This document shows, piece after piece, positions 3,281 through 52,295 of a stretch of 64,000 bases of DNA (position 1 is its first letter; each line of letters starts with the position of its first letter). A program made the position numbers and the translations under genes. The notes beneath the pieces were generated by a model, which was given only the letters and a program-made list of their open reading frames with translations, did no database searches and had not been told where the DNA came from. This DNA is from Klebsiella phage Magnus: the sequence record NC_049462.1. One strand, 5' to 3'.

Positions 3281-4798
3281 ATGGCCGACATTTCTGTGAC
3301 CAAAGTGAACGAAGTCCGTATGCGTGTGCATGCTGAAGCAGGGATCTATGAAGAACTAAATGATTACTTCAAATTTGAAGATCCCAACTTTCTGCCTAAT
3401 CCTTTCAGCAAATGGGATGGCGTCGTCCGCCTATTTACCAAATCTTCCGGCCTGATTGACATCGGTCTTCTGTTTGAACTCTTCAAATTTTGTAAGACCA
3501 ACGGTTATTCACTTGACGTGGATCCTGCATTGAAATATATCCAGGACATCCCTGACAATGAAATCCATGATTTCTGTAATAATTTGAAAACACAAATTCG
3601 CACAGAATCTGGGGAATACATTGATGCTGAAGTTCGGCAGTATCAATTCGATTCCATCGCCACTGCCATGAGGCAATCTCGCTGCGTCCTCGAGCTGGCT
3701 ACAAGTGCCGGTAAATCCTTTATTCTTTATGTGATGGCCCGTTACTACAGGGAAAGGCGAGAAGCGCTCGAAAGTAATCTGAGGACGCTTATCGTTGTTC
3801 CTTCCGTACACCTTGTAAGACAATTGTACGAGAACTTCGAAGAATATAGCCATGGACAATCCTGGAACCCGTTCTACCAGGTACAAACCATATGCGAAGG
3901 TGCAACCCGCAATATTGATAAACCCATCACAATTTCCACATGGCAAGGCATACAAGACCAGCCAAAGGATTGGTTTCATCAGTTTGGCGATATCATTGTT
4001 GATGAAGTGCATACTTCAAAGTCAGATAAACTTTCTTATATCCTCAACAACTGCATAAATGCTGACCAACGCCTCGGGGTTACTGGTACTTTGGCGAACA
4101 CTAAAGTTGCTGGTCTGCAGGTGGTATCCCACTTTGGTGCCTATCACAAGATCATCACGGCTCGAGAACTGATAAGTATGGGATATGCGGCTGATATTAA
4201 AATCCGGATGATAGAATTGAAACACAGATTGGCCGACGCTATTGATATGCATGGTGCCGATTATCAGAAAGAAATGGAATATTTGATATCGAACGAAGTT
4301 AGAAACCGGCTTATCGCCAAGATGGCTTTAACATTAAAGGGTAACGTCGCCATCATGTTCGAACGTATTGATGCCCACATGATGATCGTGTATGACATCC
4401 TCAAAGAAATAAAGCCAAACGTATTTGTCATCAACGGGGAGGTCAAATCAGCAGACCGCATGCAAATACAAAGGGCGATAGAAGAAGGTGAGGATATTAC
4501 TCTGTTGGCATCTTATGGAACGATGCAACAAGGGGTTTCTATAAAGAAACTTCATCATCTGGTATTGGCACACCCAAGCAAATCATATATCCGCGTCATC
4601 CAGACTCTTGGACGATTGATGCGTCAGCACTCAACAAAAGACGTGGCACTCATATGGGATTTGGTAGACAATTTGAGTTATAATGGGAGTTACAATCATG
4701 CGTTGCGTCACTCTCACGAGCGATACAAATTCTATTTGACAGAGCGCCACCCTGTAGAATTGAAAAGAGTGGCGCTGGAAGATTATTTGGGGTCTTGA
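3281..4798 (+). CDS. uvsW: UvsW-like SF2 DNA/RNA-DNA helicase.
   Basis: N-terminus NPFSKWDGVVRLF resembles T4 UvsW NPRFRYGNWDGRIRLL. Walker A TSAGKS, DEVH box (IIVDEVH). Length 505 aa, close to T4 UvsW. Confidence 0.85.
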   Translation: MADISVTKVNEVRMRVHAEAGIYEELNDYFKFEDPNFLPNPFSKWDGVVRLFTKSSGLIDIGLLFELFKFCKTNGYSLDVDPALKYIQDIPDNEIHDFCNNLKTQIRTESGEYIDAEVRQYQFDSIATAMRQSRCVLELATSAGKSFILYVMARYYRERREALESNLRTLIVVPSVHLVRQLYENFEEYSHGQSWNPFYQVQTICEGATRNIDKPITISTWQGIQDQPKDWFHQFGDIIVDEVHTSKSDKLSYILNNCINADQRLGVTGTLANTKVAGLQVVSHFGAYHKIITARELISMGYAADIKIRMIELKHRLADAIDMHGADYQKEMEYLISNEVRNRLIAKMALTLKGNVAIMFERIDAHMMIVYDILKEIKPNVFVINGEVKSADRMQIQRAIEEGEDITLLASYGTMQQGVSIKKLHHLVLAHPSKSYIRVIQTLGRLMRQHSTKDVALIWDLVDNLSYNGSYNHALRHSHERYKFYLTERHPVELKRVALEDYLGS

Positions 4799-5166
4799 TC
4801 CACATAGGCGGGCGTTGGCTCGCCTTCTTCACTGTCGTCAACCAAACCCAGGAATGCGTCGATACTATCACAACAACGTTGTAACAGTTCCGGCTTGATG
4901 GTTTTGTTGATGACCGCCTGATTTTTGTTGATGAGAGGGAACACTTTTAATTCGCCGAAGTTGCTCATATTGACGATCGCAACATAAAGCCCTGGCTTGG
5001 TATTACCCGACAGGAATGAGAATGGGACTTCCTTGGCAGTGTCTGATTTCGTTTCATCAACTAAAACTTTCAAAAGAGTAGTGCTTGTTGTCTCACTACC
5101 CAATTTCCGGCTTGCCATATCTCCGTGGCTGTACCCTACGGCATAGATTGCTACTAGTTGTTTCAT
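4783..5166 (-). CDS. Hypothetical protein.
   Basis: ORF on the minus strand, convergent with uvsW. No motifs recognised. Confidence 0.3.
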   Translation of the reverse strand: MKQLVAIYAVGYSHGDMASRKLGSETTSTTLLKVLVDETKSDTAKEVPFSFLSGNTKPGLYVAIVNMSNFGELKVFPLINKNQAVINKTIKPELLQRCCDSIDAFLGLVDDSEEGEPTPAYVDQDPK

Positions 5167-5489
5167 GCTATTCGTCTCGTGTTGTTTGCATCCTTATATA
5201 ATAGTCTCATGTTATGTTTAGACCAATTTAAAATAATTTGCCTTTCGGATTAAAAAGTCCTTTCTTGTTGAACAAATCCGTCGTACTATACGAGTTGTGA
5301 GCTTTGCGAGCAACGAGTATTAGGGGTTTACGAGCGAAGCGAGTTGATTAATATAAATTAATAGATTAATCTATTTCGTTAATAATTTGCGCGCGAAGAG
5401 ATTTAACACTTGTTCTATATCCCCAAATGGGCGATACTAAATTGCGTCAACAACATGACTTGACTTCACTATATCTTGAGGATACATAA

Positions 5490-7245: not shown

Positions 7246-7668
7246 ATGGCTGGTCCTTCTTTATTTGATTTCTTAGGCGCCATAAACAACACTAAAGAAA
7301 ATTTGTTAGAGACAGATGATCCCGATGTTTTGAAGGCGTTTGACCCGTTCATGATTCGAAGAGGTTTAGCTCAGAGCGAAGACACGCTGGTGATTGCACA
7401 AAAAATGAACTTGTTGCACAAGTGCAGTCCTTGGATGCAGTGGAACATGGCGTTCCATACCGTTCAGGCCAGGAAAAGATATCCAAAATGGGCCAAAAAA
7501 GGTCCGCTCGACCCTGATATTCAGATGTTGTCTGAATATTATTACATTAGCCATGAAAAGGCATCAGAGTATCTCAAATTTCTTCCAAAAGAAGCACTGG
7601 CCGAGATCAGGAAGAAAGTTGAGTTGTCTAACAGCAACGAGAAAGCGAAGCCGCGCAAGGCTAAGTAG
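7246..7668 (+). CDS. 62: Clamp loader small subunit (gp62-like).
   Basis: GAINN and KRYPKWAKK match T4 gp62 GAINN...KRYGKWAK. Position immediately after gene 44. Confidence 0.7.
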   Translation: MAGPSLFDFLGAINNTKENLLETDDPDVLKAFDPFMIRRGLAQSEDTLVIAQKMNLLHKCSPWMQWNMAFHTVQARKRYPKWAKKGPLDPDIQMLSEYYYISHEKASEYLKFLPKEALAEIRKKVELSNSNEKAKPRKAK

Positions 7669-7696
7669 TTAAAATCATTAATGAAGGAGTTTGGTC

Positions 7697-8161
7697 ATGG
7701 CGCGCAATACGCTCGACATCTTAAAACTGACTGCGGTCGACGATGAGGCCAGCATCGTCGATTGTATGGTCGAAGTTGAACTGAACCAAGATAAACCAGG
7801 GATTTTCCTGGGTATCAAGGAAACACTGAGCCGAATCGGGGTTAATACTCGTCAAGAGCCTGAAACCCTGTACCAGACCTGCCATATCCTCCACAAATCT
7901 GGCAAGTATTTTATCGTTCATTTCAAGCATCTGTTTATGCTGGATGGACATTACAACGGCTTTCAGCGTGAAGATGTCCTGCGTATGAATCGAATCATTC
8001 GTCTTCTGGAGCAGTGGAAGATGATCAAGGTTCTGCATCCGGAACAAGTGACCGAATGCGCCGACATGTCCCGTATCAAAGTTGTGAAACACGATCAGAT
8101 CGCCGATTGGAAACTGGTCCCCAAATATATCATTCGCCCATCTCGGGCCAAAAGCGAATAA
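7697..8161 (+). CDS. regA: RegA translational repressor (ATG at 7697; a TTG alternative lies at 7691).
   Basis: LYQTCHILHKSGKYFIVHFKHLFMLDG and DWKLVPKYIIRP align with T4 RegA (LYQSCHILQKKGLYYIVHFKEMLRMDG ... EWKLVPKYTI). About 25 aa N-terminal extension relative to T4. Confidence 0.85.
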   Translation: MARNTLDILKLTAVDDEASIVDCMVEVELNQDKPGIFLGIKETLSRIGVNTRQEPETLYQTCHILHKSGKYFIVHFKHLFMLDGHYNGFQREDVLRMNRIIRLLEQWKMIKVLHPEQVTECADMSRIKVVKHDQIADWKLVPKYIIRPSRAKSE

Positions 8162-8177
8162 CTGGAGTCGCTATATT

Positions 8178-9062
8178 ATGACAACTACATTTAGTAAGAA
8201 CGTGAGACTGAATCTGGCTTTTGGTAATGCTAAAGGGGACGTAACCGCCCCCGACTTTAGCAAAATTCGCAATCAGGCGAAACTCGTGTTGGAAGAAACC
8301 AAAGAACTCCTGGAAGCGGCGTATTTTGACCATGACGTTGTTGTCAATTTCCAGGCCACTCCAAAACCGAGTAACAACGAAATATATTCTGACCCCAATG
8401 CCAAAGTGAATGCTATGCGCCTCATTATGGATTCCCAGGGCGATATCACAACGGTCAACGACGGCGTGGCTCACATCGCCGGTTTCGACGGCAACGAATG
8501 CTTGCAGCGTGTCTACACGTCCAATATGAGCAAATTCATCCGTTCTGAAGATGAAGTCGGTCCGGCGCTGGATTATTACTATTCTCGCGGTTTCCCGGAA
8601 GGCCAGCTGCGTGTTGAAGGTGAATTCCCTCAGGCATGCATCAAGGTCAATGAGACCGTGATGTGGAACGGCAAAGAATATCCGGCGAATAAATTCCTGA
8701 AGAACATGGCCGTCTTCCAGGAACCGGATTTCAGTGATATGCTGACGAGTACTCCATTACAACAGGTGAAAGCCATCATCGCCAGCAGCGTTGTTGAACC
8801 GGGTAAAGCGTACATCGATAAAGAGAATGGTGTCGCTTACTTCCACATCAACGACCTCCGCCAGTTCCTGGAAACTTCTGCGGGGTTTGGTACGACTCAA
8901 GAACTGGCTAATGTAGATGGCCAGACTGAGAGTTATGTCCCGGTCTACCATGTTAGTGATGATTCGTATCCGGAACTGAACGGTTATTGGGCTGCTAACG
9001 TTCGTGTGTTCGTCTACTCCCCATACAATCCGGAAGTCACGCAGCTGACCCGTATCGATTAA
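8178..9062 (+). CDS. Hypothetical protein.
   Basis: 294 aa with a good SD. The N-part KLVLEETKELLEA weakly recalls the EExxE motif of all-alpha NTP pyrophosphohydrolases (MazG / T4 gp56-like). This is not established. Confidence 0.45.
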   Translation: MTTTFSKNVRLNLAFGNAKGDVTAPDFSKIRNQAKLVLEETKELLEAAYFDHDVVVNFQATPKPSNNEIYSDPNAKVNAMRLIMDSQGDITTVNDGVAHIAGFDGNECLQRVYTSNMSKFIRSEDEVGPALDYYYSRGFPEGQLRVEGEFPQACIKVNETVMWNGKEYPANKFLKNMAVFQEPDFSDMLTSTPLQQVKAIIASSVVEPGKAYIDKENGVAYFHINDLRQFLETSAGFGTTQELANVDGQTESYVPVYHVSDDSYPELNGYWAANVRVFVYSPYNPEVTQLTRID

Positions 9063-9085
9063 GTCATTCCACGTTTCAATATACA

Positions 9086-9108
9086 ACAGAGGCTATAATG
9101 GCCTCTGT
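9086..9108 (+). terminator. Hairpin with loop TATAATG followed by a T-run (terminator with an embedded -10-like hexamer).
   Basis: acagaggc-TATAATG-gcctctgt tttcg. TTCAAT lies 13 nt upstream of TATAAT. The hairpin ends 26 nt before the ATG at 9134. Confidence 0.6.
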
Positions 9109-10700: not shown

Positions 10701-12731
10701 ATGTCAGATTTTAAACCCTTCGCAGTTGCTGTAAAGAATCAAATCACCGCGATGTCCAGCAATGGCCTGTACATGACTTCGGTTGACAAAGACGCCCTGT
10801 GGGATCTGTATCTGTCGTCTTTCCCGGAAGGCACCAACAACATCTACCGTGAGCGCACCGAGCACGATTGCACCTGCTGCAAGCAATTCATCCGTAATAT
10901 CGGCGGCGTCGTATCGATTGACGCTGATCTGAACCTGGTCACTGTGTGGGACAGTGTTAATCTGGGCAACGAATATGACGTGGTGGCAGCGGCGCTGGCC
11001 AAGTATGTCAAGCAGCACAATATCGTGGGCGTATACTTCAACGATTCGTCTAAAGTCGGCGTTGAAAGCAACCATGAAATGGGTGAAAACGGTAAAGTCC
11101 GCACCTACAACCATTTCCACGCAACGCTGGAAGGCAAATTTGTTCTCCGCGCCGATACTATCGCATCCAGAAAAGGTGAAATCTGGCAGTCGATTGAAGT
11201 CTTTGAGCGCGGGTTGCGTGAACTGACTCTGGAATCGGCTGAGATCGTACTGGAACTCATCGACCAGAACTCCCTGTATCGTGGCGAAGAGCATCGTGCT
11301 GCTATCCAGAGCTTTATCCAAAGCAAAAATGAATACGCACAAATTCCGTCGACTCTGAAACAACTCTGGGCTTGGCGTACTGGCTGGATGTCGAATAACC
11401 ATAAGCCGTTCGGCATCCGAAATAACGTCATCGGCACGTTATTAATCGATCTGTCTGGTGGCGTGGATCTGGAAAAGGCGGTTAAGTCATTTGAAACCAA
11501 AGTGGCACCGACCAACTACCGCCGCCCGACTGCTCTGGTGACTAAGGGTATGATCGAGCAAGCGCAGAAAAAAGTTGCTGAACTCGGCCTGACCGACTCG
11601 CTCGGACGCCGCTTTGCCACCTACGACGACCTGACCATCAACAACGTTCTGTTCGCTGATTTGGCTGCGCAGAAGGCGATGGATCCGTTTGCCCAGCTGG
11701 CTCAGGAAGTGAAAGTGTCGGAGAAATCCCTGGGTAAAATCGAAGAGATCAGTGCCGACGACTTTGTCAAAAACGTACTGCCGAAGGCGCATTCTATGGA
11801 AGTCCTCTTTGAGGGTTCCCATACTGGTAATCTGATGTCGTTGGTGGCACCGCAAACTGCAGGCGCACCTGGCCTCTTCAAATGGAATAACAACTTCTCC
11901 TGGTCATATAATGGTGAAGTTGCCGATTCCATCAAAGAGCGCGTGAAGGCCGCTGGCGGTAATGTGGATTCGTTCCTGCGTGTGTCTCTGGCCTGGTTCA
12001 ACAACGATGACCTGGACCTGCACATGTATACACCGCAGCGTGAACATATCTACTTCCACACTCGCGAATCCCGTTCTACGGGCGCCAAGCTGGACGTTGA
12101 TATGAACGGCATGGATGGTATCAACGCAGAACGCAAGCCCGTTGAGAACATCTTCTTCAGCGATGAAAGCAAGCTGAAAGACGGTGTGTATCAGTTCGTG
12201 GTGGACAATTATAACCAACGTGAAACTATCGACACCGGGTTTATCATCGAAGTCGAATACAAAGGTGATCTGAAGCGCTATTCCTGCGAAAAAGGTCTGA
12301 AGCAGAAACAGCAGTTCGCGGTAGTTGAACTTCATGTCAAAAATGGCAAAGTCGTTGACGTTCAGACTCCACTGACGCCGACTGCTGGCGTTGAGACTGA
12401 AGTATGGGGCATCCGTACACAGAACTTCCAGAAAGTGCAGCTGGTTCTGAACTCACCGAACCATTGGGATGGTGAACAGACAGGCAACCGCCACTTGTTC
12501 TTTATCCTGGAAGGCTGTGTGAACCCGGTCGGAACCCGCGGATTCTACAACGAATATCTGAAGCCGGAACTGGCACCGCATGGTAAGGTTTTTGAAATGC
12601 TTGGCGCTAAAATGAAAACAGCACCAAGTGATAACCAACTGAGCGGCCTGGGCTTCTCTTCCACTCAGCGCAACCATGTTCTGGTGAAGGTAAGTGGCTC
12701 GTTCAACCGTGTAGTCAAAGTCGTCTTTTAA
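10701..12731 (+). CDS. Hypothetical protein (676 aa).
   Basis: Strong SD and high-GC codon usage like the core genes. N-terminal Cys cluster HDCTCCKQF. No family recognised. Confidence 0.5.
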   Translation: MSDFKPFAVAVKNQITAMSSNGLYMTSVDKDALWDLYLSSFPEGTNNIYRERTEHDCTCCKQFIRNIGGVVSIDADLNLVTVWDSVNLGNEYDVVAAALAKYVKQHNIVGVYFNDSSKVGVESNHEMGENGKVRTYNHFHATLEGKFVLRADTIASRKGEIWQSIEVFERGLRELTLESAEIVLELIDQNSLYRGEEHRAAIQSFIQSKNEYAQIPSTLKQLWAWRTGWMSNNHKPFGIRNNVIGTLLIDLSGGVDLEKAVKSFETKVAPTNYRRPTALVTKGMIEQAQKKVAELGLTDSLGRRFATYDDLTINNVLFADLAAQKAMDPFAQLAQEVKVSEKSLGKIEEISADDFVKNVLPKAHSMEVLFEGSHTGNLMSLVAPQTAGAPGLFKWNNNFSWSYNGEVADSIKERVKAAGGNVDSFLRVSLAWFNNDDLDLHMYTPQREHIYFHTRESRSTGAKLDVDMNGMDGINAERKPVENIFFSDESKLKDGVYQFVVDNYNQRETIDTGFIIEVEYKGDLKRYSCEKGLKQKQQFAVVELHVKNGKVVDVQTPLTPTAGVETEVWGIRTQNFQKVQLVLNSPNHWDGEQTGNRHLFFILEGCVNPVGTRGFYNEYLKPELAPHGKVFEMLGAKMKTAPSDNQLSGLGFSSTQRNHVLVKVSGSFNRVVKVVF

Positions 12732-12766
12732 GTTAAAATACAACCGAATTCATAGAGGATACAAAA

Positions 12767-13138
12767 ATGTTTGATAAAGCAACCCGTCTGAAACTGCGTT
12801 TCAACTCCAACAAAGGCATGCTGTCCGTTGAGCAGGTGTGGGATCTGAGCCTGACTGCTCTGAACGAAATGGCGAAAGGTCTGAACCGCGAACTGAAAGC
12901 TGCTGCGGTTGACGATGAAGATTTCATCGGTAACAATACCGCTGTTGATTCTCAGCTGCAACTGCGCTTTGACATCGTCAAAAGCATCATCAGCACCAAG
13001 CTGAAAGAGCGCGACGACACCCTGTCCGCTGCAGAAAAACGTGAGCACAACCAGGCCATCCTGGAACTCATCAAGAAGAAACAGCAGGAAGAGCTGGCGG
13101 GCAAATCTGTTGAAGAACTGCAAGCCCTGCTGAAATAA
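12767..13138 (+). CDS. Hypothetical protein (123 aa). Its last ~11 codons are duplicated downstream of nadV.
   Basis: SD AGAGGA. C-terminus ...SVEELQALLK. Confidence 0.5.
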   Translation: MFDKATRLKLRFNSNKGMLSVEQVWDLSLTALNEMAKGLNRELKAAAVDDEDFIGNNTAVDSQLQLRFDIVKSIISTKLKERDDTLSAAEKREHNQAILELIKKKQQEELAGKSVEELQALLK

Positions 13139-13182
13139 ATCCGTCAACTCCGGTATTAACAACCCCGCCCTGTGCGGGGTTT
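13102..13182 (+). repeat. Direct repeat copy 1: 33-nt core plus terminator hairpin.
   Basis: caaatCtgttgaagaactgcaagccctgctgaa (13102-13134), then 26 nt, then aaccccgccCtgtgcggggttt (13161-13182). Confidence 0.8.
13161..13182 (+). terminator. Rho-independent terminator.
   Basis: aaccccgcc-ctgt-gcggggtt followed by T-rich sequence. Confidence 0.7.
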
Positions 13183-13236
13183 CAATTTGTGTATCGCAGT
13201 ATAATACATATGTAAACTAAACTATGGGGCTACGTT

Positions 13237-14091
13237 ATGTTTCGTTTGAGATTGAACGACCAAGATGTGTTCTACAAACACTTCACCTTTCCGGGCGGTG
13301 AGGAACATATCAAGATTCAAAAGGCGGGTATCCCTGTTGGTAAAATCCAGACAGTGGTAATTGACGCCCACATTAAATCGTCAGCAGACTTCATTGAGCT
13401 GGCACTGTTGGTGAATGCCGTGCGCGGCCTGGGTAATGTCGACCGACTGACAACATTTCATGCTTATATCCCTTATTTTCCATATGCCCGTCAGGATCGT
13501 CATTGCGACTTTGGTGAACCTCTTTCGGTGAAGTGGGCAGCAGAGTTCATCAATAGTATGAACTTTGACCGTGTGGCTATCAAAGACCCTCACAGCCATG
13601 TTGTGTCTTCTTTGATCAACAACGTCCATGTTGTCCCGCAAGATTACATTGCTCGCCAGTACCTGGGATGGTTCATCCGTGGAAACAACGCTGTGTTAGT
13701 AGCCCCTGACGGTGGCGCGGCGAAGAAGACTGAAACCCTCAGCCTATCGCTGGATGGCGTTCCTGTTGTCTACGGACATAAGAACCGCGACACCAAGACA
13801 GGCGAGATCATTGGGGTGAGTATTACAAACCCTGAACTGATCAAAGACCGCTATCTGGTTGTGGTAGATGATATCTGTGACGGCGGGCGAACGTTTGTTG
13901 AGCTGGGCAAAGAGCTTCAGAAGCACGAGCCTAAGCACATGACCCTCTTCGTTACCCACGGCATTTTCAGCAAAGGCCTCTCTGTGTTCGACGGGATCTA
14001 CGATGCTGTGTATGCCGACACTGTCTGGTGGGAGAACATCACTGCCGACGGTCTTCCATTCAAAACTGAAAATACAGGACGTGTAAAATGA
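13237..14091 (+). CDS. prs: Ribose-phosphate pyrophosphokinase family protein (Prs-like; alternatively an ADPR-PP synthetase of NARP1 type).
   Basis: PRPP synthetase motifs: FPYARQDRH (PP-binding loop), LVVVDDICDGGRTF (PRPP-binding site). 284 aa. Confidence 0.75.
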   Translation: MFRLRLNDQDVFYKHFTFPGGEEHIKIQKAGIPVGKIQTVVIDAHIKSSADFIELALLVNAVRGLGNVDRLTTFHAYIPYFPYARQDRHCDFGEPLSVKWAAEFINSMNFDRVAIKDPHSHVVSSLINNVHVVPQDYIARQYLGWFIRGNNAVLVAPDGGAAKKTETLSLSLDGVPVVYGHKNRDTKTGEIIGVSITNPELIKDRYLVVVDDICDGGRTFVELGKELQKHEPKHMTLFVTHGIFSKGLSVFDGIYDAVYADTVWWENITADGLPFKTENTGRVK

Positions 14092-15740
14092 GCATGCGCC
14101 ACTTAGATCCAATCCATGCAATCGACTTCTACAAATCAGGGCACATCTATCAATTTCCTGAAGGTAGCGAGCTGGTGTTCTCCAACGGAACTCCACGCTC
14201 CAACAAACTGTTCAACTCCCACCTGCCGAAGAACGGCGTGGTGGTCTGGGGTATCCAGGGCTTCATGACCTGGTTCCACGAACTGTTTGATGAAGCGTTC
14301 TTCCAGCGCCCAAAGGCCAAGGTGCTGAAGAAGTATGCCCGTCGAATGAACAAAGTTCTCGGACCAGGCCGCGTTGGGACAGAGCATATCGAAGCCCTGC
14401 ACGACCTCGGCTACCTGCCTATCGAAGTCCGCGCTCTACCCGAAGGCACCATGTGCCCGTATGGTGTTCCAGTATATGTGATGTTCAACACCTTGCCGGA
14501 GTTCTACTGGCTGACCAACTATCTGGAGACGGTGTTCAGCTCTGAGATCTGGAAGCCGATGACGAACGCAACCATTGCCCTGCATTACAAGGCGCTGATG
14601 GTGAAAGCCGCTATCGCTACAGGCGTGTCGCCGGACCATTGGTTCATCGACTACCAAGGCCACGACTTCTCCTTCCGTGGTATGAGCGGGTGGCATGACG
14701 CGGCGTCTTCCGGTTCTGGCCATCTGGTGTTCTTCAAAGGCACCGACACCAACCCTGCCCTGGACTTCGTTGAAGAGTATTATGGCGCGGATATCGATGA
14801 AGACTATGTCGTTGCTGGCTCTGTTGCAGCCACCGAACACGCCGTGATGTGCATGGGCACGAAAGATGGCGAATTCGAAACCTTCCGCCGCCTGGTACAG
14901 GACGTGTATCCTGATGGCATCGTCAGTATCGTTTCTGATGCATGGGATTACTGGCAGGTCATCGACGACTATCTGCCGCGCCTCAAAGATATCATCATGG
15001 CGCGTAATGGCAAAGTTGTGATCCGCCCCGACTCTGGTGACCCAGTGCATATCGTCGGTGGTTATCGCGTCGAAGAATTTTGCAATGAGCAGGATTTTTA
15101 CGATAACGACCCACGTGAAGAAACTGAAGTTATCTATCTCAAAGAAGAAAACAGATACCATATTCTGGAACAATATCAGTTTAATCAGATCGGGGAAGAG
15201 ATTTCTCGTTCAGAAGCGGTCGGTTCTATCCAGCGCCTATGGGAGATCTTTGGCGGAACCCAGACCGAAACGGGCCACTTCCTGTTGGATGAGCATATCG
15301 GCCTGATCTACGGTGATTCCATTACCCTGAGCCGTGAAGATCAGATCTTTGCTCGTCTGGCTGAACGTAATTTCGCTTCCATCAACGTAGTGTTCGGTAT
15401 CGGTTCCTATACTTACCAGATGAACACCCGTGATAGTACCGGGACGGCGGTGAAAGCAACGGCTGGGAAGGTCAACGGTGAATTCCGTGAGATTTTCAAA
15501 GAACCGAAGACTGACAAAGGTGGTACGAAGAAATCTGCGCGTGGTTTCCTTAAAGTCATTAAAGACTCTCAGGGTAAACTAGTGTTGGTTGACGGTATCA
15601 CCTTTGATCAGGTGCAAGACGCCGACAACCAGCACCAGCTGGTGTATCGTGATGGCAAGTTCTTCAACACCCAAACTCTGGAAGAAGCGCGTTTTCGTGC
15701 CGCTCCTCTGGTGGAAGAATTGGCATCACAAATATGTTGA
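14088..15740 (+). CDS. nadV: Nicotinamide phosphoribosyltransferase family protein (NadV/NAMPT-like; alternatively a Namat).
   Basis: NAMPT-family features: N-terminus DFYKSGH, GTEHIEALHDLGYLP, RPDSGDP, YGDSIT. Start overlaps the prs stop (ATGA). 550 aa. Confidence 0.75.
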   Translation: MSMRHLDPIHAIDFYKSGHIYQFPEGSELVFSNGTPRSNKLFNSHLPKNGVVVWGIQGFMTWFHELFDEAFFQRPKAKVLKKYARRMNKVLGPGRVGTEHIEALHDLGYLPIEVRALPEGTMCPYGVPVYVMFNTLPEFYWLTNYLETVFSSEIWKPMTNATIALHYKALMVKAAIATGVSPDHWFIDYQGHDFSFRGMSGWHDAASSGSGHLVFFKGTDTNPALDFVEEYYGADIDEDYVVAGSVAATEHAVMCMGTKDGEFETFRRLVQDVYPDGIVSIVSDAWDYWQVIDDYLPRLKDIIMARNGKVVIRPDSGDPVHIVGGYRVEEFCNEQDFYDNDPREETEVIYLKEENRYHILEQYQFNQIGEEISRSEAVGSIQRLWEIFGGTQTETGHFLLDEHIGLIYGDSITLSREDQIFARLAERNFASINVVFGIGSYTYQMNTRDSTGTAVKATAGKVNGEFREIFKEPKTDKGGTKKSARGFLKVIKDSQGKLVLVDGITFDQVQDADNQHQLVYRDGKFFNTQTLEEARFRAAPLVEELASQIC

Positions 15741-15810
15741 AGAACTGCAAGCCCTGCTGAATAGCCAGCTGCCTTCGGCGCGATAATGAACCCCGCCATG
15801 TGCGGGGTTT
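15729..15810 (+). repeat. Direct repeat copy 2: 33-nt core (1 mismatch) plus terminator hairpin (1 mismatch).
   Basis: caaatAtgttgaagaactgcaagccctgctgaa (15729-15761), then 27 nt, then aaccccgccAtgtgcggggttt (15789-15810). Confidence 0.8.
15789..15810 (+). terminator. Rho-independent terminator after nadV.
   Basis: Hairpin aaccccgccatgtgcggggttt + attttag. Confidence 0.7.
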
Positions 15811-15826
15811 ATTTTAGGTGAAGAAT

Positions 15827-16204
15827 ATGAAACCAGTTATTTGTGATTATTGTGGGAAGGCAGCGATACTCGTTAGTGGCGACGCAATATACCCCCACCG
15901 CCCGGATCTTAACCACCTTCAATTCTGGGCTTGTGAGCCTTGCGATGCAAGAGTCGGTTGCCATCCTAACACAGGGGGCATTCCCCTCGGGAGCCTGGCT
16001 AATGCCGAATTGCGCAAAGCGAGAAACAAGGCGCATAACTGTTTTGATCCTCTTTGGAGAGAAGGTGGTATGAGCCGTGGACAGGCATACCAATGGCTGT
16101 CTGAACAACTCGGTCTACCGAAGTCCAAATGTCATATAGGACAATTCGATATCCACACGTGCACAAAAGTCGTTGGCTTGTGCAGCCTTTATTGGAGTAT
16201 GTAA
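15827..16204 (+). CDS. Zinc-finger domain protein (DUF3268-like).
   Basis: CDYCG...CEPCDARVGCHPNTGGIPLGSLA...HNCFDPLW. Resembles the zinc-finger-containing domain family common in phages and prophages. AT-richer than neighbouring genes. Confidence 0.55.
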   Translation: MKPVICDYCGKAAILVSGDAIYPHRPDLNHLQFWACEPCDARVGCHPNTGGIPLGSLANAELRKARNKAHNCFDPLWREGGMSRGQAYQWLSEQLGLPKSKCHIGQFDIHTCTKVVGLCSLYWSM

Positions 16205-16957
16205 ATGTCTAACAGAACTGGTATTAAACTCAATCCAGAAATCCTTAAATCCCATATCGCGGAAGTTATCTATGAAGACCGCGAAGTGGGAGGGCATCGT
16301 GTTATCACTTGCCATTTGAAAATGGATAACGGATTTGTCGTTTGGGGAAAGGATAGCTCAACATCTATTGACCCCAAAAATTTCGATGAAGAATTGGGCA
16401 AGAAATTGGCATACGATAAGACTTTCTCTCAATTGTGGGAACTGGAAGCATATCGGGCTATGGTTGTCCAAGATTTCATTGGTAAGACAACTGAAGAACC
16501 GTTTATAAAACTTGAAGATTATATTGAAGAAAGTAAGACAATGCAAGTATCCGGTTGGGACTATCGGAATGGTGTAGCCACCGCATATTCTATTAGATCA
16601 ATTAAAAGAAGTAAATTTGGATTGTTGGATTACATCAGCATTTGTCTTTACAAAACTGATAATAAAAAACATGATGATATCAATAATTCGAAAGAAATAC
16701 AGAAAGCAAAGGATTTCATCAGATCTTATATGAATCACACTGAAATTAATAGCCAGTTTGTAATTCATATCGCAAAACTTTGTTGGGCTGCTCGGTCAGC
16801 GGTTGTGGACACTACACCTTCTTGGGAAGATTCTAAAGAAACAGATCGCCAAGATATGTGCGAAACGGTTAAAAAATTACTGTTATCCCCCAGCGATTAT
16901 CAACCAAAAGATAATTTGTTGAAATTGTTTTGGGCGATTGTGTCCCAATTCCGATAA
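16205..16957 (+). CDS. Hypothetical protein. The N-terminal ~110 aa resemble the phage Gp49/Gp66-like family.
   Basis: ITCHLKMDNGFVVWGKDSSTSIDPKNFDEELGKKLAY pattern. AT-rich; C-terminal half unrelated. Confidence 0.4.
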   Translation: MSNRTGIKLNPEILKSHIAEVIYEDREVGGHRVITCHLKMDNGFVVWGKDSSTSIDPKNFDEELGKKLAYDKTFSQLWELEAYRAMVVQDFIGKTTEEPFIKLEDYIEESKTMQVSGWDYRNGVATAYSIRSIKRSKFGLLDYISICLYKTDNKKHDDINNSKEIQKAKDFIRSYMNHTEINSQFVIHIAKLCWAARSAVVDTTPSWEDSKETDRQDMCETVKKLLLSPSDYQPKDNLLKLFWAIVSQFR

Positions 16958-17021
16958 CAAAACCGGGTTCAATATACGTTCGGGCATATAATATCCTAGT
17001 GTTAAACAGTGGAGAAGATTT

Positions 17022-17378
17022 ATGTCGATCAAAATGAAAGGTGCCGAGTTTAAAGCATACTACGATGACTCAGAGTATTGGGTTCAGGATGCTTGGCATG
17101 ATTATCACAACATAAAGGTTAATGGCGAATATATTGAAGATATTGAAACTGAGAATATTCCCGACGACGCTGATGTGGTTATTGAGTCGGGGATAGTTTA
17201 TATTCCCATCAGAAGTGAATCCGGTTATGAAGAAAAAGAAATCCAACTGGTCACACACTTCAAGAACTGGCGCAAACTGCAGAAATTTTCTACTATCGTT
17301 GTCGTAGTTGAGAAAGACAAAGCTGAAGAAATTATAGCCTCAATTAAAACGATGCCGGGCGTCAATACCGTCAAGTGA
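17022..17378 (+). CDS. Hypothetical protein.
   Basis: ORF with SD GGAGAAG; acidic. Confidence 0.4.
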   Translation: MSIKMKGAEFKAYYDDSEYWVQDAWHDYHNIKVNGEYIEDIETENIPDDADVVIESGIVYIPIRSESGYEEKEIQLVTHFKNWRKLQKFSTIVVVVEKDKAEEIIASIKTMPGVNTVK

Positions 17379-17521
17379 GGCGATAATGGATTCCTGTCTA
17401 TTAGATCCCGAGAACGTTCTTGTGGTTGAAATTGAAAACAACAAGCCGTTCATTTTGAAAATGTTGGAGAAGGATAATAATCCTGAAACCAATCCTAAAC
17501 TATCCCAAAAGGGGAATAACG

Positions 17522-19720
17522 ATGATTGAATCATTAGAATTTAAGAATGCCACACAGACGGTTGCTCCTTCCAATCACGTCATCGTCGTTGACATTTCTT
17601 ATTCCATGTGCTATGCGCTGCCGAAACTGCGCCAGCACCTGAAAGAAAACCTGCCCTCTCTGGTTAAGCCGGAAGACACCATCAGTATTCTGTACTTCTC
17701 TTCTCGTGGCGACTTCGGTACTGTGTTCGCTGGGCGCCAGGTCAGAAACGCATCTGACCTGAGTGAGCTGGGCAAACTGATCGATCGCTTCCTGCAACCG
17801 ACGGGCTGCACCGGATTTGTTGAGCCGCTCAAGCTGGCTATCGAAACCGCCAACGATCTGAAAAAGTCCGGCGTCATCAATTCCCTGGTGTTCATGACCG
17901 ACGGCTATGACAACTGCTGGCGTTCCAGTGAAATCCTGGCCGTTGCTGAGCAGCTGCCAAAAGCATACGACAACATCACCCTGATCGAATACGGCTGGAA
18001 CTGCAACCGCGAACTGCTGCAGAAAATGGCTGAGTGCTCTGGTGCAACCCATGTATTCGCCGAAGGCCAGGAAGAATATCAGACCGAACTGGAAACAGCG
18101 ATGGTTTCTGTCGCTCCGCGCGTTCGCGTTGATTTCAGCGTCATCTATTCCTATGCCGTTTATATCGAAAACGGGATTCCGACCATCCTGGCCGCCCAGT
18201 CTGATGAAGACCATCCTATCAATTACGTCAACATCCCTGAGAGCGTCTCTAAGCTGTGGGTTGTTGATCCTGATATGATCGACCAACTGGATAACCTGGC
18301 GGACGTTGAAGCGGCATATGTGCTGGCTCTCTTTGGCGTGCATACTATGGATGCCGACCTGGTGTGGGCCGCGCTGAAAAAGACTGGCGATGTGCGCTTC
18401 ATTAAACAGTACACCAACTGCTTCACCAAGCAGGATTATTCCAACATCAAAACTGACATTACAGCAGCGATTGTAGACCCGGCGCTGCGCGGTGTGGACG
18501 GTATCGATTACAATCTGGTGCCGCCGGAAGACGCAACTACTGTTGTTGATGTTCTGACTTACCTGGCGGGAGCAGACGCACAACTGGTTGTTGACCATCC
18601 CCTGTTCTCTTACAAGCGGATCGGTCGCGGTACGGTACAAAAAGCCGACGATACCGAAGACAAGCTGGCGGCAGAAATTGCCGAAGCCAAATCTAAAGAA
18701 GAGCGTAAAGCGCTGGCCCTGAAACTGGCTGAACACGAAGACTGGACTCCTGTGTTTGAGCCAGTGAAAGGCGCGGGCGTTCCCATCAGCAATCTGGTTT
18801 ACAACTCCGCCCGCCCGAACATCAGTCTGCAGACTGTGCAAAACGGGACCGTCATCATTCCGAAGTTCGCCCAAAAGAAATACGATCTGCCGGAATCTAT
18901 TGACACATGGCAGTGGAAGAACTACACCATCGTCAAAGACGGTATCATCCATATGAAGACCCTTCCTGTGGTCTGCTCGGCTGAAACCGTATCTGAACTG
19001 GTTAGCAAAGGCGTTGAAGTTTACGGCGGGCCGGAAGTGTTCATCGTAAATCTGGGCAGCGTTCCTCTGGTTAACCGCGCGATGGTTAAGAACATCAGCG
19101 CCGCGCAGTTCTTTGCTGACCATGTCCGTCTGGAATCCCTGAAAGCCAAGCAGAAGGTTCTCAAATACTTCCGTGACGAACTGGTTGGGAAAGGTAATGC
19201 CGTGGGCCTGGCGGGCAAATACGGTGCCGAAGCGGCTGAGTTTCTGTCTGCGAATGGCATCCGCGATTACGGCTTCTCTCCGAAGACCGCTTCGGTTGAG
19301 TCTACTGATTTCTACATGAGCCGCGAACTCAATGTGAAGATCAAAGGCGCTTCCTCTCTGCCGTCAATTGCCGCCGTTCTGAAGAAACAGGCAGACAACA
19401 AAAAGCTGAACGCAGCTGATCAGCTGATCGCTAATGCGCTGGCAGAATACAACGCCTTTGTCAAATCTCCGGCGGTGACTGCAGTCCCGGAAGCAACGCA
19501 GGCCAAGATCATTGAATCTTGGATCAGTGACGCTGCCAAGGCCGCAATCACCCAAGTGCGTGAGCTGAACAAGACCCTGTCCAAATCCCTGTATGCCATC
19601 GTTGCTGGCCATGGCTGGTTCACCGACCTGGATCTGGAAGAGTCCACCATGGAAGTGGAAGTTGACGGTGTGAAATACACCGTCAGCGCAGTGCTGGAAG
19701 AGAAAGAGATCAAAATCTAA
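17522..19720 (+). CDS. von Willebrand factor A (vWA) domain protein, 732 aa.
   Basis: MIDAS residues: VVDISYSM (DxSxS) ... PTGCTG ... FMTDGYDN. High-GC codon usage. Long C-terminal region of unknown function. Confidence 0.65.
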   Translation: MIESLEFKNATQTVAPSNHVIVVDISYSMCYALPKLRQHLKENLPSLVKPEDTISILYFSSRGDFGTVFAGRQVRNASDLSELGKLIDRFLQPTGCTGFVEPLKLAIETANDLKKSGVINSLVFMTDGYDNCWRSSEILAVAEQLPKAYDNITLIEYGWNCNRELLQKMAECSGATHVFAEGQEEYQTELETAMVSVAPRVRVDFSVIYSYAVYIENGIPTILAAQSDEDHPINYVNIPESVSKLWVVDPDMIDQLDNLADVEAAYVLALFGVHTMDADLVWAALKKTGDVRFIKQYTNCFTKQDYSNIKTDITAAIVDPALRGVDGIDYNLVPPEDATTVVDVLTYLAGADAQLVVDHPLFSYKRIGRGTVQKADDTEDKLAAEIAEAKSKEERKALALKLAEHEDWTPVFEPVKGAGVPISNLVYNSARPNISLQTVQNGTVIIPKFAQKKYDLPESIDTWQWKNYTIVKDGIIHMKTLPVVCSAETVSELVSKGVEVYGGPEVFIVNLGSVPLVNRAMVKNISAAQFFADHVRLESLKAKQKVLKYFRDELVGKGNAVGLAGKYGAEAAEFLSANGIRDYGFSPKTASVESTDFYMSRELNVKIKGASSLPSIAAVLKKQADNKKLNAADQLIANALAEYNAFVKSPAVTAVPEATQAKIIESWISDAAKAAITQVRELNKTLSKSLYAIVAGHGWFTDLDLEESTMEVEVDGVKYTVSAVLEEKEIKI

Positions 19721-45214: not shown

Positions 45215-45247
45215 CGCCGCCTTCAATCTATGAGGGCGGCGTATAAT
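45215..45247 (+). promoter_or_regulatory. Hairpin immediately followed by TATAAT, upstream of nrdA.
   Basis: cgccgcc(TTCAATctatgag)ggcggcg then TATAAT at 45242-45247. TTCAAT lies 14 nt upstream of TATAAT. ATG at 45282. Confidence 0.45.
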
Positions 45248-52262: not shown

Positions 52263-52295
52263 AAGCAATAAAAACCCCGCTCATGCGGGGTTTTG
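52263..52295 (-). terminator. Hairpin terminator between minus-strand genes (could act on either strand).
   Basis: aaaaccccgc-tcat-gcggggtttt ggttcttttt. Confidence 0.6.

Follow-up and report, generated by a model that had tools for sequence, protein, structure and literature searches.

Introduction

NARP1 is a two-enzyme pathway that starts from ADP-ribose, in which Adps makes ADPR-PP and Namat combines it with nicotinamide to form NAD+, and it defeats NAD+-depleting defences (Osterman et al., bioRxiv 10.1101/2024.02.11.579819; PMC12774641; PMC13586617). A gene pair annotated as Prs plus Nampt was shown to be NARP1 (Osterman et al., bioRxiv 10.1101/2024.02.11.579819). The variable presence of NAMPT/RPPK in Agtrevirus, with a possible anti-defence role, has already been reported (PMC10791037, PMC11721090), and our literature searches found no description of the junction structure of this operon. 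Here we analyse a prs-nadV operon, most likely of this kind, in a 64,000-nucleotide (nt) stretch of Klebsiella phage Magnus (NC_049462.1; this whole stretch is the window below), in which the operon is bracketed by direct repeats of ~80 base pairs (bp). The window belongs to Taipeivirus, a group of Klebsiella phages in the Ackermannviridae, and the region is 97-98% identical to UPM 2146, Madison, 0507-KN2-1 and Menlow. The repeats are very probably a recombination scar, left when prs-nadV was re-joined beside a gene for a 123-amino-acid (aa) protein in one Klebsiella Taipeivirus sublineage.

Two other described systems bear on such a locus. Classic morons, in the concept of mosaic joints associated with Hendrix and Juhala, reside in temperate phages and often have a distinct base composition. 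Modular shuffling in T4-type phages involves promoter-early stem-loops (PeSLs; Arbiol et al. 2010, PMC2839356; Comeau et al. 2014, PMC4122927), which form a dispersed family of ~50 copies per genome, densest in hyperplastic regions and with sigma-70 consensus promoters (PMC2839356, PMC4122927). Encapsidated mini-circles that arise when flanking copies recombine are a further mark of PeSLs.

Structure of the repeat

The core of the repeat is 33 nt long and lies on the + strand at 13102-13134 (copy 1) and 15729-15761 (copy 2), ~2.63 kilobases (kb) apart; the copies are identical at 32/33 positions, with a C/A difference at the sixth base. A 22-nt hairpin, AACCCCGCC(C/A)TGTGCGGGGTTT, follows 26 nt past the core at 13161-13182 (hairpin 1) and 27 nt past it at 15789-15810 (hairpin 2), each copy thus measuring ~80 bp with its spacer. 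This is the arrangement given in the original prediction, which had been made from the letters of the window. Identity between the copies is 97% in the core and 95% in the hairpin, and the spacers, as had also been noticed, are unrelated, with 9/27 aligned positions identical. Comparison of the window with itself, which had been proposed as a check, returned the repeat as the only near-perfect long direct repeat in the 64 kb, the remaining direct repeats being at most 86% identical. Core and hairpin patterns have two sites each in the window, compared with 0.00 expected from shuffles. Chance similarity or an assembly artefact can practically be dismissed, given this expectation and the presence of the two-copy structure in 19 independently sequenced phages from several countries. 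The idea that the same hairpin might flank other cassettes was not borne out, as its pattern occurs in the 64 kb only at 13161 and 15789. A third hairpin at 52272-52293 (AAACCCCGCTCATGCGGGGTTT then TGGTTCTTTTT) is 73% similar and has no 33-nt core beside it; it is probably an unrelated intrinsic terminator of the same stem design.

The source of the repeat is the 3′ end of the 123-aa gene (12767..13138, + strand; phrog_2018, E = 2e-47), in which copy 1 encodes ...K S V E E L Q A L L K. This gene is conserved across Ackermannviridae and many other phages, with tblastn matches in 419 phage records. The last 11 codons of the gene plus its stop had been said to recur, but the stop does not: the 33-nt repeat ends at ...ctgctgaa, the TAA (13136-13138) lies outside it, and copy 2 runs on as aaTAGcc. 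Nor does copy 2 begin right after the nadV stop, as had been described. The nadV open reading frame (ORF; 14088-15740) ends caa ata tgt TGA, and its last three sense codons and stop (15738-15740) lie inside copy 2, in a frame that differs from that of copy 1 (aaa tct gtt gaa). Copy 2 is therefore coding in its first 12 nt, as the end of nadV, and non-coding, as originally stated, only beyond them.

Behind the 123-aa gene, relatives in Taipeivirus, Agtrevirus, Kuttervirus and Limestonevirus have a hypervariable spacer of ~20-27 nt and then the same hairpin, and the more distant phiMAM1 has a different hairpin after this gene. Because the hairpin is kept there whichever gene comes next, we take it to be the 123-aa gene's own terminator-like element. 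Hairpin 1 (+ strand; -14.0 kcal/mol) is the native intrinsic-terminator-like hairpin with an 8-bp G+C stem, and hairpin 2 (+ strand; -16.9 kcal/mol) is a second copy of it with the native run of T residues (T-run) TTTATTTT and an extended 11-bp stem, annotated as a terminator in one record (Madison). Spacer 1 (13135..13160, + strand) consists of an a, the TAA stop and atccgtcaactccggtattaac, and is one variant of the hypervariable spacer that is also seen in the operon-free, empty-site phage cp19. Spacer 2 (15762..15788, + strand; tagccagctgccttcggcgcgataatg) is homologous to the native spacer of the empty-site phages T765, FKP14 and HMGUkp5, and in it the stop of the 123-aa gene has decayed from aaataaatcc to aatagcca. 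KP6F1 and KP6 carry 2-4 further substitutions within the 33 nt of copy 2. Because it is out of frame, has lost its TAA and has been substituted further in these two phages, copy 2 reads as a largely neutral scar, save for its terminator hairpin and the 12 nt that complete nadV. A coding role for copy 2 as part of a 65-aa ORF (15589-15786, ...VEELQALLNSQLPSAR) was considered and rejected, as the frame is unconserved: Menlow-type copies keep the TAA, and those of KP6 and KP6F1 are substituted.

Layouts in relatives and the native site of the operon

The proteins of the window were placed by tblastn on 20 related loci. The stretch from the conserved 123-aa gene to a conserved ~730-aa gene proved to be a hot spot with at least seven layouts. 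In the window, Madison and 0507-KN2-1 the 123-aa gene is followed by prs-nadV, then by the Zn-finger and 250-aa genes, and then by 118-aa and 47-aa genes. Menlow, Trex and FKP10 have the same order with the 250-aa gene alone between nadV and the 118-aa gene, and in KFM-TASP06 and TTM-TASP117 the 118-aa and 47-aa genes come straight after prs-nadV. The operon stands further downstream in May and in Agtrevirus SKML-39 (123-aa, Zn-finger and 250-aa genes, then prs-nadV) and in Bullseye (123-aa and 250-aa genes, prs-nadV, then the 118-aa and 47-aa genes). Operon-free layouts have the 123-aa gene followed by the Zn-finger, 250-aa and 118-aa genes (IME250, HMGUkp5), by the 250-aa and 118-aa genes (T765, FKP14, cp19) or by the 118-aa gene (KWBSE43-6), and the operon is also missing from Kuttervirus PhaxI and Miltonvirus phiMAM1. 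The empty site that the original prediction had proposed to look for in relatives was thus found in IME250 and HMGUkp5, where the 123-aa gene, one repeat with its hairpin and the Zn-finger gene follow one another. Across relatives from three genera it is the Zn-finger gene that natively follows the 123-aa gene.

The native site of the operon lies ~1.2 kb further downstream in Agtrevirus and Taipeivirus, and a relic of it persists in Limestonevirus. Upstream of the native operon a different hairpin, gacgcctggtatatttgctgggcgtt, abuts a promoter-like TTCAATTTGTG..TATAAT. At its downstream end nadV reads ...tca CAA ATC TGA taa (...ELASQI*, tgataac) and is followed by its own terminator aaggggaggagactcccctgtttt (aaggggagg..cccct), an arrangement shared by SKML-39 (Agtrevirus), May, Bullseye and KFM-TASP06 (Taipeivirus) and the phiDP23.1 relic. 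In phiDP23.1 (a Dickeya phage of Limestonevirus), positions 7433-8716 of the locus (L013) hold decayed relics of the Zn-finger gene (65 aa) and the 250-aa gene (91 aa) together with a nadV relic (residues 441-549, 94% identical) that keeps the native terminator, which indicates that the operon was once present in this phage and has since been eroded. Since the operon was already resident ~1.2 kb downstream in the family, with its own hairpin/promoter and terminator, the event in the window is best described as relocation or exchange among related phages rather than as a new acquisition from outside. The fresh insertion that had been proposed is not in keeping with this residence in Agtrevirus and Taipeivirus and with the Limestonevirus relic.

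The two junctions and their probable single origin

The right junction of the operon is repeat copy 2 itself, in which nadV ...tcaCAAAT is joined to the 123-aa gene's ...CAAATCTGttgaagaactgcaagccctgctgaa. In the window it reads tcaCAAATAtg|ttgaagaactgcaagccctgctgaa…, nadV's CAAATCTG having been joined to the identical CAAATCTG at 13102-13109 (+ strand), so that the left edge of the 33-nt repeat is a 7-8-nt microhomology common to copy 1 and the native nadV 3′ end. The crossover deleted the terminator of nadV, gave it one Cys codon and a new stop, and brought in the tail of the 123-aa gene, a spacer, the hairpin and the native downstream partner, the Zn-finger gene. Throughout the family, the sequence to which copy 2 corresponds is conserved as coding sequence of the 123-aa gene, and on this evidence copy 2 is the duplicated native junction between the 123-aa gene and the Zn-finger gene. 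At the left junction the window has gcggGGTTT|CAATTTGTG where the donor layout has ctggGCGTTT|CAATTTGTG, one terminator T-run replacing another. The T-run of hairpin 1 is thereby fused to the operon promoter (TTTCAATTT instead of the native TTTNTTTT), and the hairpin of the 123-aa gene (hairpin A) occupies in the derived layout exactly the former place of the operon's upstream hairpin (hairpin B). Alignment of the native and derived junctions upholds the claim that a junction was duplicated when recombination placed the two-gene module beside the 123-aa gene. It does not uphold the claim that the module came to lie between this gene and its original terminator: both copies carry the terminator, copy 2 is the native junction, and the copy-1 spacer is a variant of another lineage.

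A 141-nt query across the right junction (window 15690-15830) was compared with 50,697 phage records. The joint is spanned by 22 records, which represent 19 distinct phages, all of them Klebsiella Taipeivirus, and more than 100 further records of Ackermannviridae do not align until 15729/15730, at their own junction of the 123-aa and Zn-finger genes. The left junction is present in the same 19 phages, which form one closely related set with operons 96-100% identical. When junction bases and copy-2 sequences were read individually in 11 genomes, the base at the mismatch was A in all 11, and the parental sequences have C or T, which argues for one founding event. Exact-pattern scans with this base left free returned only Menlow in IMG/VR and nothing in metagenomes, and hence no pre-A intermediate; the 123-aa protein as a query of IMG/VR gave 5 loci only, all copies of GenBank phages.

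The native nadV end in three genera and the out-of-frame, decayed state of copy 2 indicate that the window-type order is derived. The opposite polarity, in which the window-type order is ancestral and that of May and SKML-39 is derived, or an origin of the repeat by old in-frame duplication of the 123-aa protein's C-terminus, could draw on the occurrence of this order in 19 genomes. We consider it very improbable, however, because those genomes are the one close set just described, the chimeric nadV end uses coding sequence of the 123-aa gene in another frame, nadV has its native end and terminator in the three genera, and copy 2 has lost its stop and gathered further substitutions. The original prediction had named an ancient in-frame duplication as the better explanation should all relatives share both copies with conserved coding in copy 2; both copies are found in only 19 genomes, and copy 2 is out of frame and decaying.

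Recombination at the repeats and transfer of the operon

Pairs of close relatives suggest how the operon is gained and lost. Over 1.5 kb on each side, cp19 and Menlow are 99.1% (left flank) and 97.9% (right flank) identical, and they differ by the operon and one repeat copy. The joint falls within the hairpin; in cp19 the copy-1 spacer and the C-loop hairpin are joined straight to the 250-aa gene. In the same way HMGUkp5 is 97.9% identical in its right flank to the window and Madison. Behind an identical nadV junction stand, depending on the phage, the Zn-finger and 250-aa genes, the 250-aa gene, or a 57%-identical variant of the 250-aa gene. The copy-2 spacers and hairpin loops differ or are mosaic between phages, KP6F1 being a hybrid.

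The window itself is mosaic. Its left flank from 10701 to 13109, comprising a 676-aa gene and most of the 123-aa gene, is 96% identical at the nucleotide level to IME250, compared with 81-86% for the other relatives (83.5% for Madison), and the operon and right flank are 99% Madison-like. The switch from IME250-like to Madison-like sequence maps to 13033-13109, at the end of the 123-aa gene. Breakpoints among the relatives fall at the 3′ end of the hairpin (the left junction, the cp19/Menlow difference and the exchange of Zn-finger and 250-aa partners) and in the last ~100 nt of the 123-aa gene. From these alignments, the 3′ end of the 123-aa gene and the hairpin appear to be short homologous-recombination joints for gain, loss and re-partnering of the operon. 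Synonymous identity to SKML-39 is 68% in the 123-aa gene, 48% in the upstream 676-aa gene and 22-36% in the downstream modules, and such an island of nucleotide conservation at the 123-aa gene would favour crossovers there. The claim that such cassettes move by recombination between short stem-loops therefore stands in so far as the hairpin and the 123-aa 3′ end act as joints, but these are not members of a dispersed promoter-stem-loop family.

Synonymous-site identity was also used to compare the operon with the backbone. Between the window and SKML-39 it is 62-70% in the operon and 48% in the backbone; between the window and May or Bullseye it is 52-60% in the operon and 65-80% in the backbone. 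These opposed trends indicate that the operon has been transferred across lineages. This incongruence at synonymous sites rules out purifying selection alone as an explanation of why the operon is so similar across genera.

Proposed course of events

The ancestral order would have been the 123-aa gene, hairpin A, (Zn-finger gene), 250-aa gene, hairpin B with the promoter, prs, nadV with its own terminator, and the 118-aa gene. Most likely, the left junction would have arisen first, by deletion of the intervening genes between two terminator T-runs, and the right junction next, by one unequal crossover with a co-infecting relative that had no operon, in an order that we infer. The right junction shows an illegitimate crossover between the nadV 3′ end tcaCAAATCTGataa and the 3′ end of the 123-aa gene ggCAAATCTGttgaa of a second genome copy, after which nadV is trailed by ~25 nt of the end of the 123-aa gene, a spacer, the terminator hairpin and the native downstream genes. 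One parent would already have had hairpin A fused to the promoter and the other would have been operon-free, and, with two different parental genomes involved, the two spacers would have been unrelated from the outset. Hairpin 2 is now the predicted terminator-like hairpin of the operon and keeps its native link to the Zn-finger gene. The architecture of KFM-TASP06, with the left junction only and the native nadV end, shows that the first parental type is viable, and this phage may be a later recombinant. KFM-TASP06 and TTM-TASP117 were considered as clean intermediates and downgraded, as the 3′ half of their nadV is Bullseye-like and both are low-quality partial genomes.

The main alternative is insertion in one step into a single operon-free genome. 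Replication would stall at the terminator hairpin, the promoter-prs-nadV segment of a co-infecting operon-bearing phage would be copied after a template switch at GG(G/C)GTTT, and synthesis would return at CAAATCTG 80 nt upstream, leaving a target duplication. Microhomology at both junctions would fit such a course, as would the window's region between the 250-aa and 118-aa genes, which is of an untouched 'empty' type, and the existence of empty recipients like cp19 and HMGUkp5. However, one-step insertion predicts spacers that were identical at birth, and only 9/27 of their positions agree between a core at 97% and a hairpin at 95%; the copy-1 spacer type, moreover, is found in none of the 11 copy-2 sequences read. 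Spacers of different lineage types fit a two-parent crossover better than duplication within one genome, and we regard one-step insertion as unlikely.

A dedicated mobile element (a transposon, an integron-like cassette or a homing endonuclease), with the repeat as its target-site duplication or attachment site, might be suggested by the direct repeats that flank the cassette and by the homing endonuclease genes that lie a few kb upstream in some relatives. We found no transposase-, integrase- or homing-endonuclease-like gene within the cassette and no transposase, integrase or endonuclease gene beside it. Transposons and insertion sequences have a transposase, terminal inverted repeats and an exact duplication of 2-14 bp, and none of these features, nor any feature of an integron, is present here: terminal inverted repeats are absent, the repeat at ~80 bp is far beyond a typical target-site duplication, and its middle 26-27 nt are unrelated. 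The repeat is ordinary gene-end and terminator sequence that is single-copy in every relative, and we consider involvement of such an element highly unlikely. The mechanism is ordinary illegitimate and homologous recombination of phages, with no new mechanism or kind of element.

Several points weigh against the two-parent relocation that we favour. We found no phage that could be the donor, with the window-type allele of the operon at its native site. KFM-TASP06 and TTM-TASP117, which have the left junction only, could be secondary recombinants, and their records are error-prone 'partial genome' entries. Phage cp19 could be either an ancestral recipient or a product of repeat-mediated loss. 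The swaps of copy-2 spacers require crossovers within only ~25 nt of homology, which T4-like recombination could plausibly provide. Generic sigma-70 and terminator scans were no richer in the window than in shuffles, and left the operon promoter motif and hairpin 2 uncalled; our promoter and terminator calls rest instead on comparative conservation, motif enrichment and folding, and the activities themselves are inferred from sequence.

Identity of the operon

The operon consists of a prs-like gene of 284 aa (13237..14091, + strand; Pfam Pribosyltran and Pribosyltran_N) and a nadV-like gene of 550 aa (14088..15740, + strand; NAPRTase family by Pfam), which overlap at ATGA. The NadV-like protein matches PDB 9W5X/9W5W (SpbetaL1 Namat) with E = 6.6e-136 and 457 bits, compared with E = 3e-51 for mammalian Nampt structures. 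The 284-aa Prs-like protein falls below every curated NCBIfam Prs cutoff (106.5 against 113 for the broadest model), and its best match to a solved Prs in PDB has E = 1e-17. As in the operons of Osterman et al., a Prs-like gene is followed by a Nampt-like gene in one operon with the same Pfam domains, and the Nampt-like protein is far nearer to SpbetaL1 Namat than to any Nampt. Adps is a PRPS-like enzyme set apart from bona fide Prs by a shortened C-terminus; the Prs-like protein here is short and under the Prs cutoffs. On these similarities the prs-like gene is probably Adps, the first NARP1 enzyme, the nadV-like gene is probably Namat, the second, and the operon is most likely the known NARP1 pathway. 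The window's putative Namat differs by an insertion of ~55 aa relative to SpbetaL1 Namat.

The insertion is AT-rich, lies at nadV residues ~322-378 (~15050-15230) and is present relative to both SpbetaL1 Namat and Nampt, and the PDB and Pfam alignments split there. Around it the window allele has 56-78% nucleotide identity to SKML-39, May and Bullseye, compared with 80-95% in the rest of the gene. The PHROG profile phrog_12872 (547 positions) is chimeric: the Prs-like protein corresponds to its positions 1-222 and the C-terminal half of NadV to 219-547. Such a profile points to a prs::nadV deletion-fusion in some phages, or to an ORF called wrongly.

Comparison with morons and promoter-early stem-loops

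Like a moron, the operon is an accessory transcription unit that some close relatives have, and others lack, between one and the same pair of conserved genes (cp19 and Menlow; HMGUkp5 compared with the window and Madison), and it was set in place by illegitimate junctions and then spread through homologous recombination in the flanks. A promoter-like motif moves with it in both positions, and the terminator-like hairpin downstream of it in the window comes from the 123-aa gene, the crossover having removed the one that belonged to the operon. Unlike classic morons, it sits in a virulent phage, has a G+C content of 0.45-0.56 against 0.47-0.53 on the left flank, and was already resident at a neighbouring site in the family.

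The likeness to PeSLs lies in composite boundaries of a terminator-like hairpin and a promoter-like motif among non-essential genes of a hyperplastic region, in the indels and replacements between close relatives that end in these elements, and in a module flanked by direct repeats that could in principle loop out. At copy 1 in the window the stem-loop abuts a promoter-like motif, and the other three sites of this motif have a stem-loop or short inverted repeat. The differences are that the hairpin occurs only twice in 64 kb (with the one 73%-similar hairpin at 52272) and the promoter motif four times; that copy 2 is without the motif, the ribosome-binding site of the Zn-finger gene coming directly after it; that half of the repeat belongs to the coding region of a conserved gene; and that the founding junctions were formed at 4-8-nt microhomologies, not at pre-existing repeats.

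Neighbouring genes and promoter-like motifs

The motif that accompanies the operon is a promoter-like TTCAAT-N13-TATAAT at 13181..13205 (+ strand), ahead of prs; it is also found ahead of prs in May, Bullseye and SKML-39, there behind a different hairpin. A second copy of the TTCAAT-N13-TATAAT motif at 16968..16992 (+ strand) precedes the 118-aa gene. With spacings of N12-14 the window has four sites on the + strand (9075-9099, 13181-13205, 16968-16992 and 45222-45247), against 0.03 expected. The -10 box at 9075 lies in a loop, a stem spans the TTCAAT at 45222, hairpin 1 abuts the motif at 13181, and only a weak 3-bp pairing accompanies that at 16968. Normal -35/-10 pairs are spaced more widely than this, and the motif is not the sigma-70 consensus; from its sequence it looks like a phage-specific promoter class of PeSL-like architecture.

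Downstream of copy 2 lie the Zn-finger gene (15827..16204, + strand; DUF3268, 125 aa from its ATG; Pfam PF11672, E = 3e-40) and the 250-aa gene of the N4 gp49/Sf6 gp66 family (16205..16957, + strand; Pfam PF13876), the second gene of the displaced module. The intergenic region between the 250-aa and 118-aa genes in the window is near-identical to that of T765, more diverged from that of IME250, and holds no trace of past presence of the operon. A low-G+C island at ~16200-17600 (0.34-0.40 compared with ~0.50) covers the gp49/66-like 250-aa gene and the 118-aa and 47-aa genes, and its composition suggests an origin of this module different from that of the operon and the backbone. A divergent allele of the 250-aa gene in FKP14 (7441-8190 of locus L011) and FKP10 (4638-5387 of locus L015) has been auto-annotated as an 'anti-CRISPR protein', a putative label only.

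Implications

The ~80-bp repeats may make the NARP1 operon a recombination-portable cassette that loops out, possibly as PeSL-like mini-circles, and re-enters relatives which carry the 123-aa end and the hairpin; we offer this tentatively, as something the layouts allow but that is on balance doubtful. If it were true, phage populations would gain and lose NAD+ rescue quickly as host defences change, and cp19 and Menlow would be a snapshot of this process. The repeat-flanked layout may also render the operon unstable on passage.

The locus offers a base-pair-resolved history of the movement of an anti-defence operon in a family of therapeutic-candidate phages of Klebsiella, Salmonella and E. 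coli, covering the founding microhomology junctions, later homologous exchange, near-isogenic pairs with and without the operon, and neutral decay of the scar. It extends to Ackermannviridae the terminator- and promoter-associated shuffling of modules that is known for T4-type phages. Genes labelled 'NAMPT/RPPK' in Ackermannviridae should be read as probable NARP1, and since presence of the operon varies by strain, it may affect the performance of these phages on hosts with NAD+-depleting defences.

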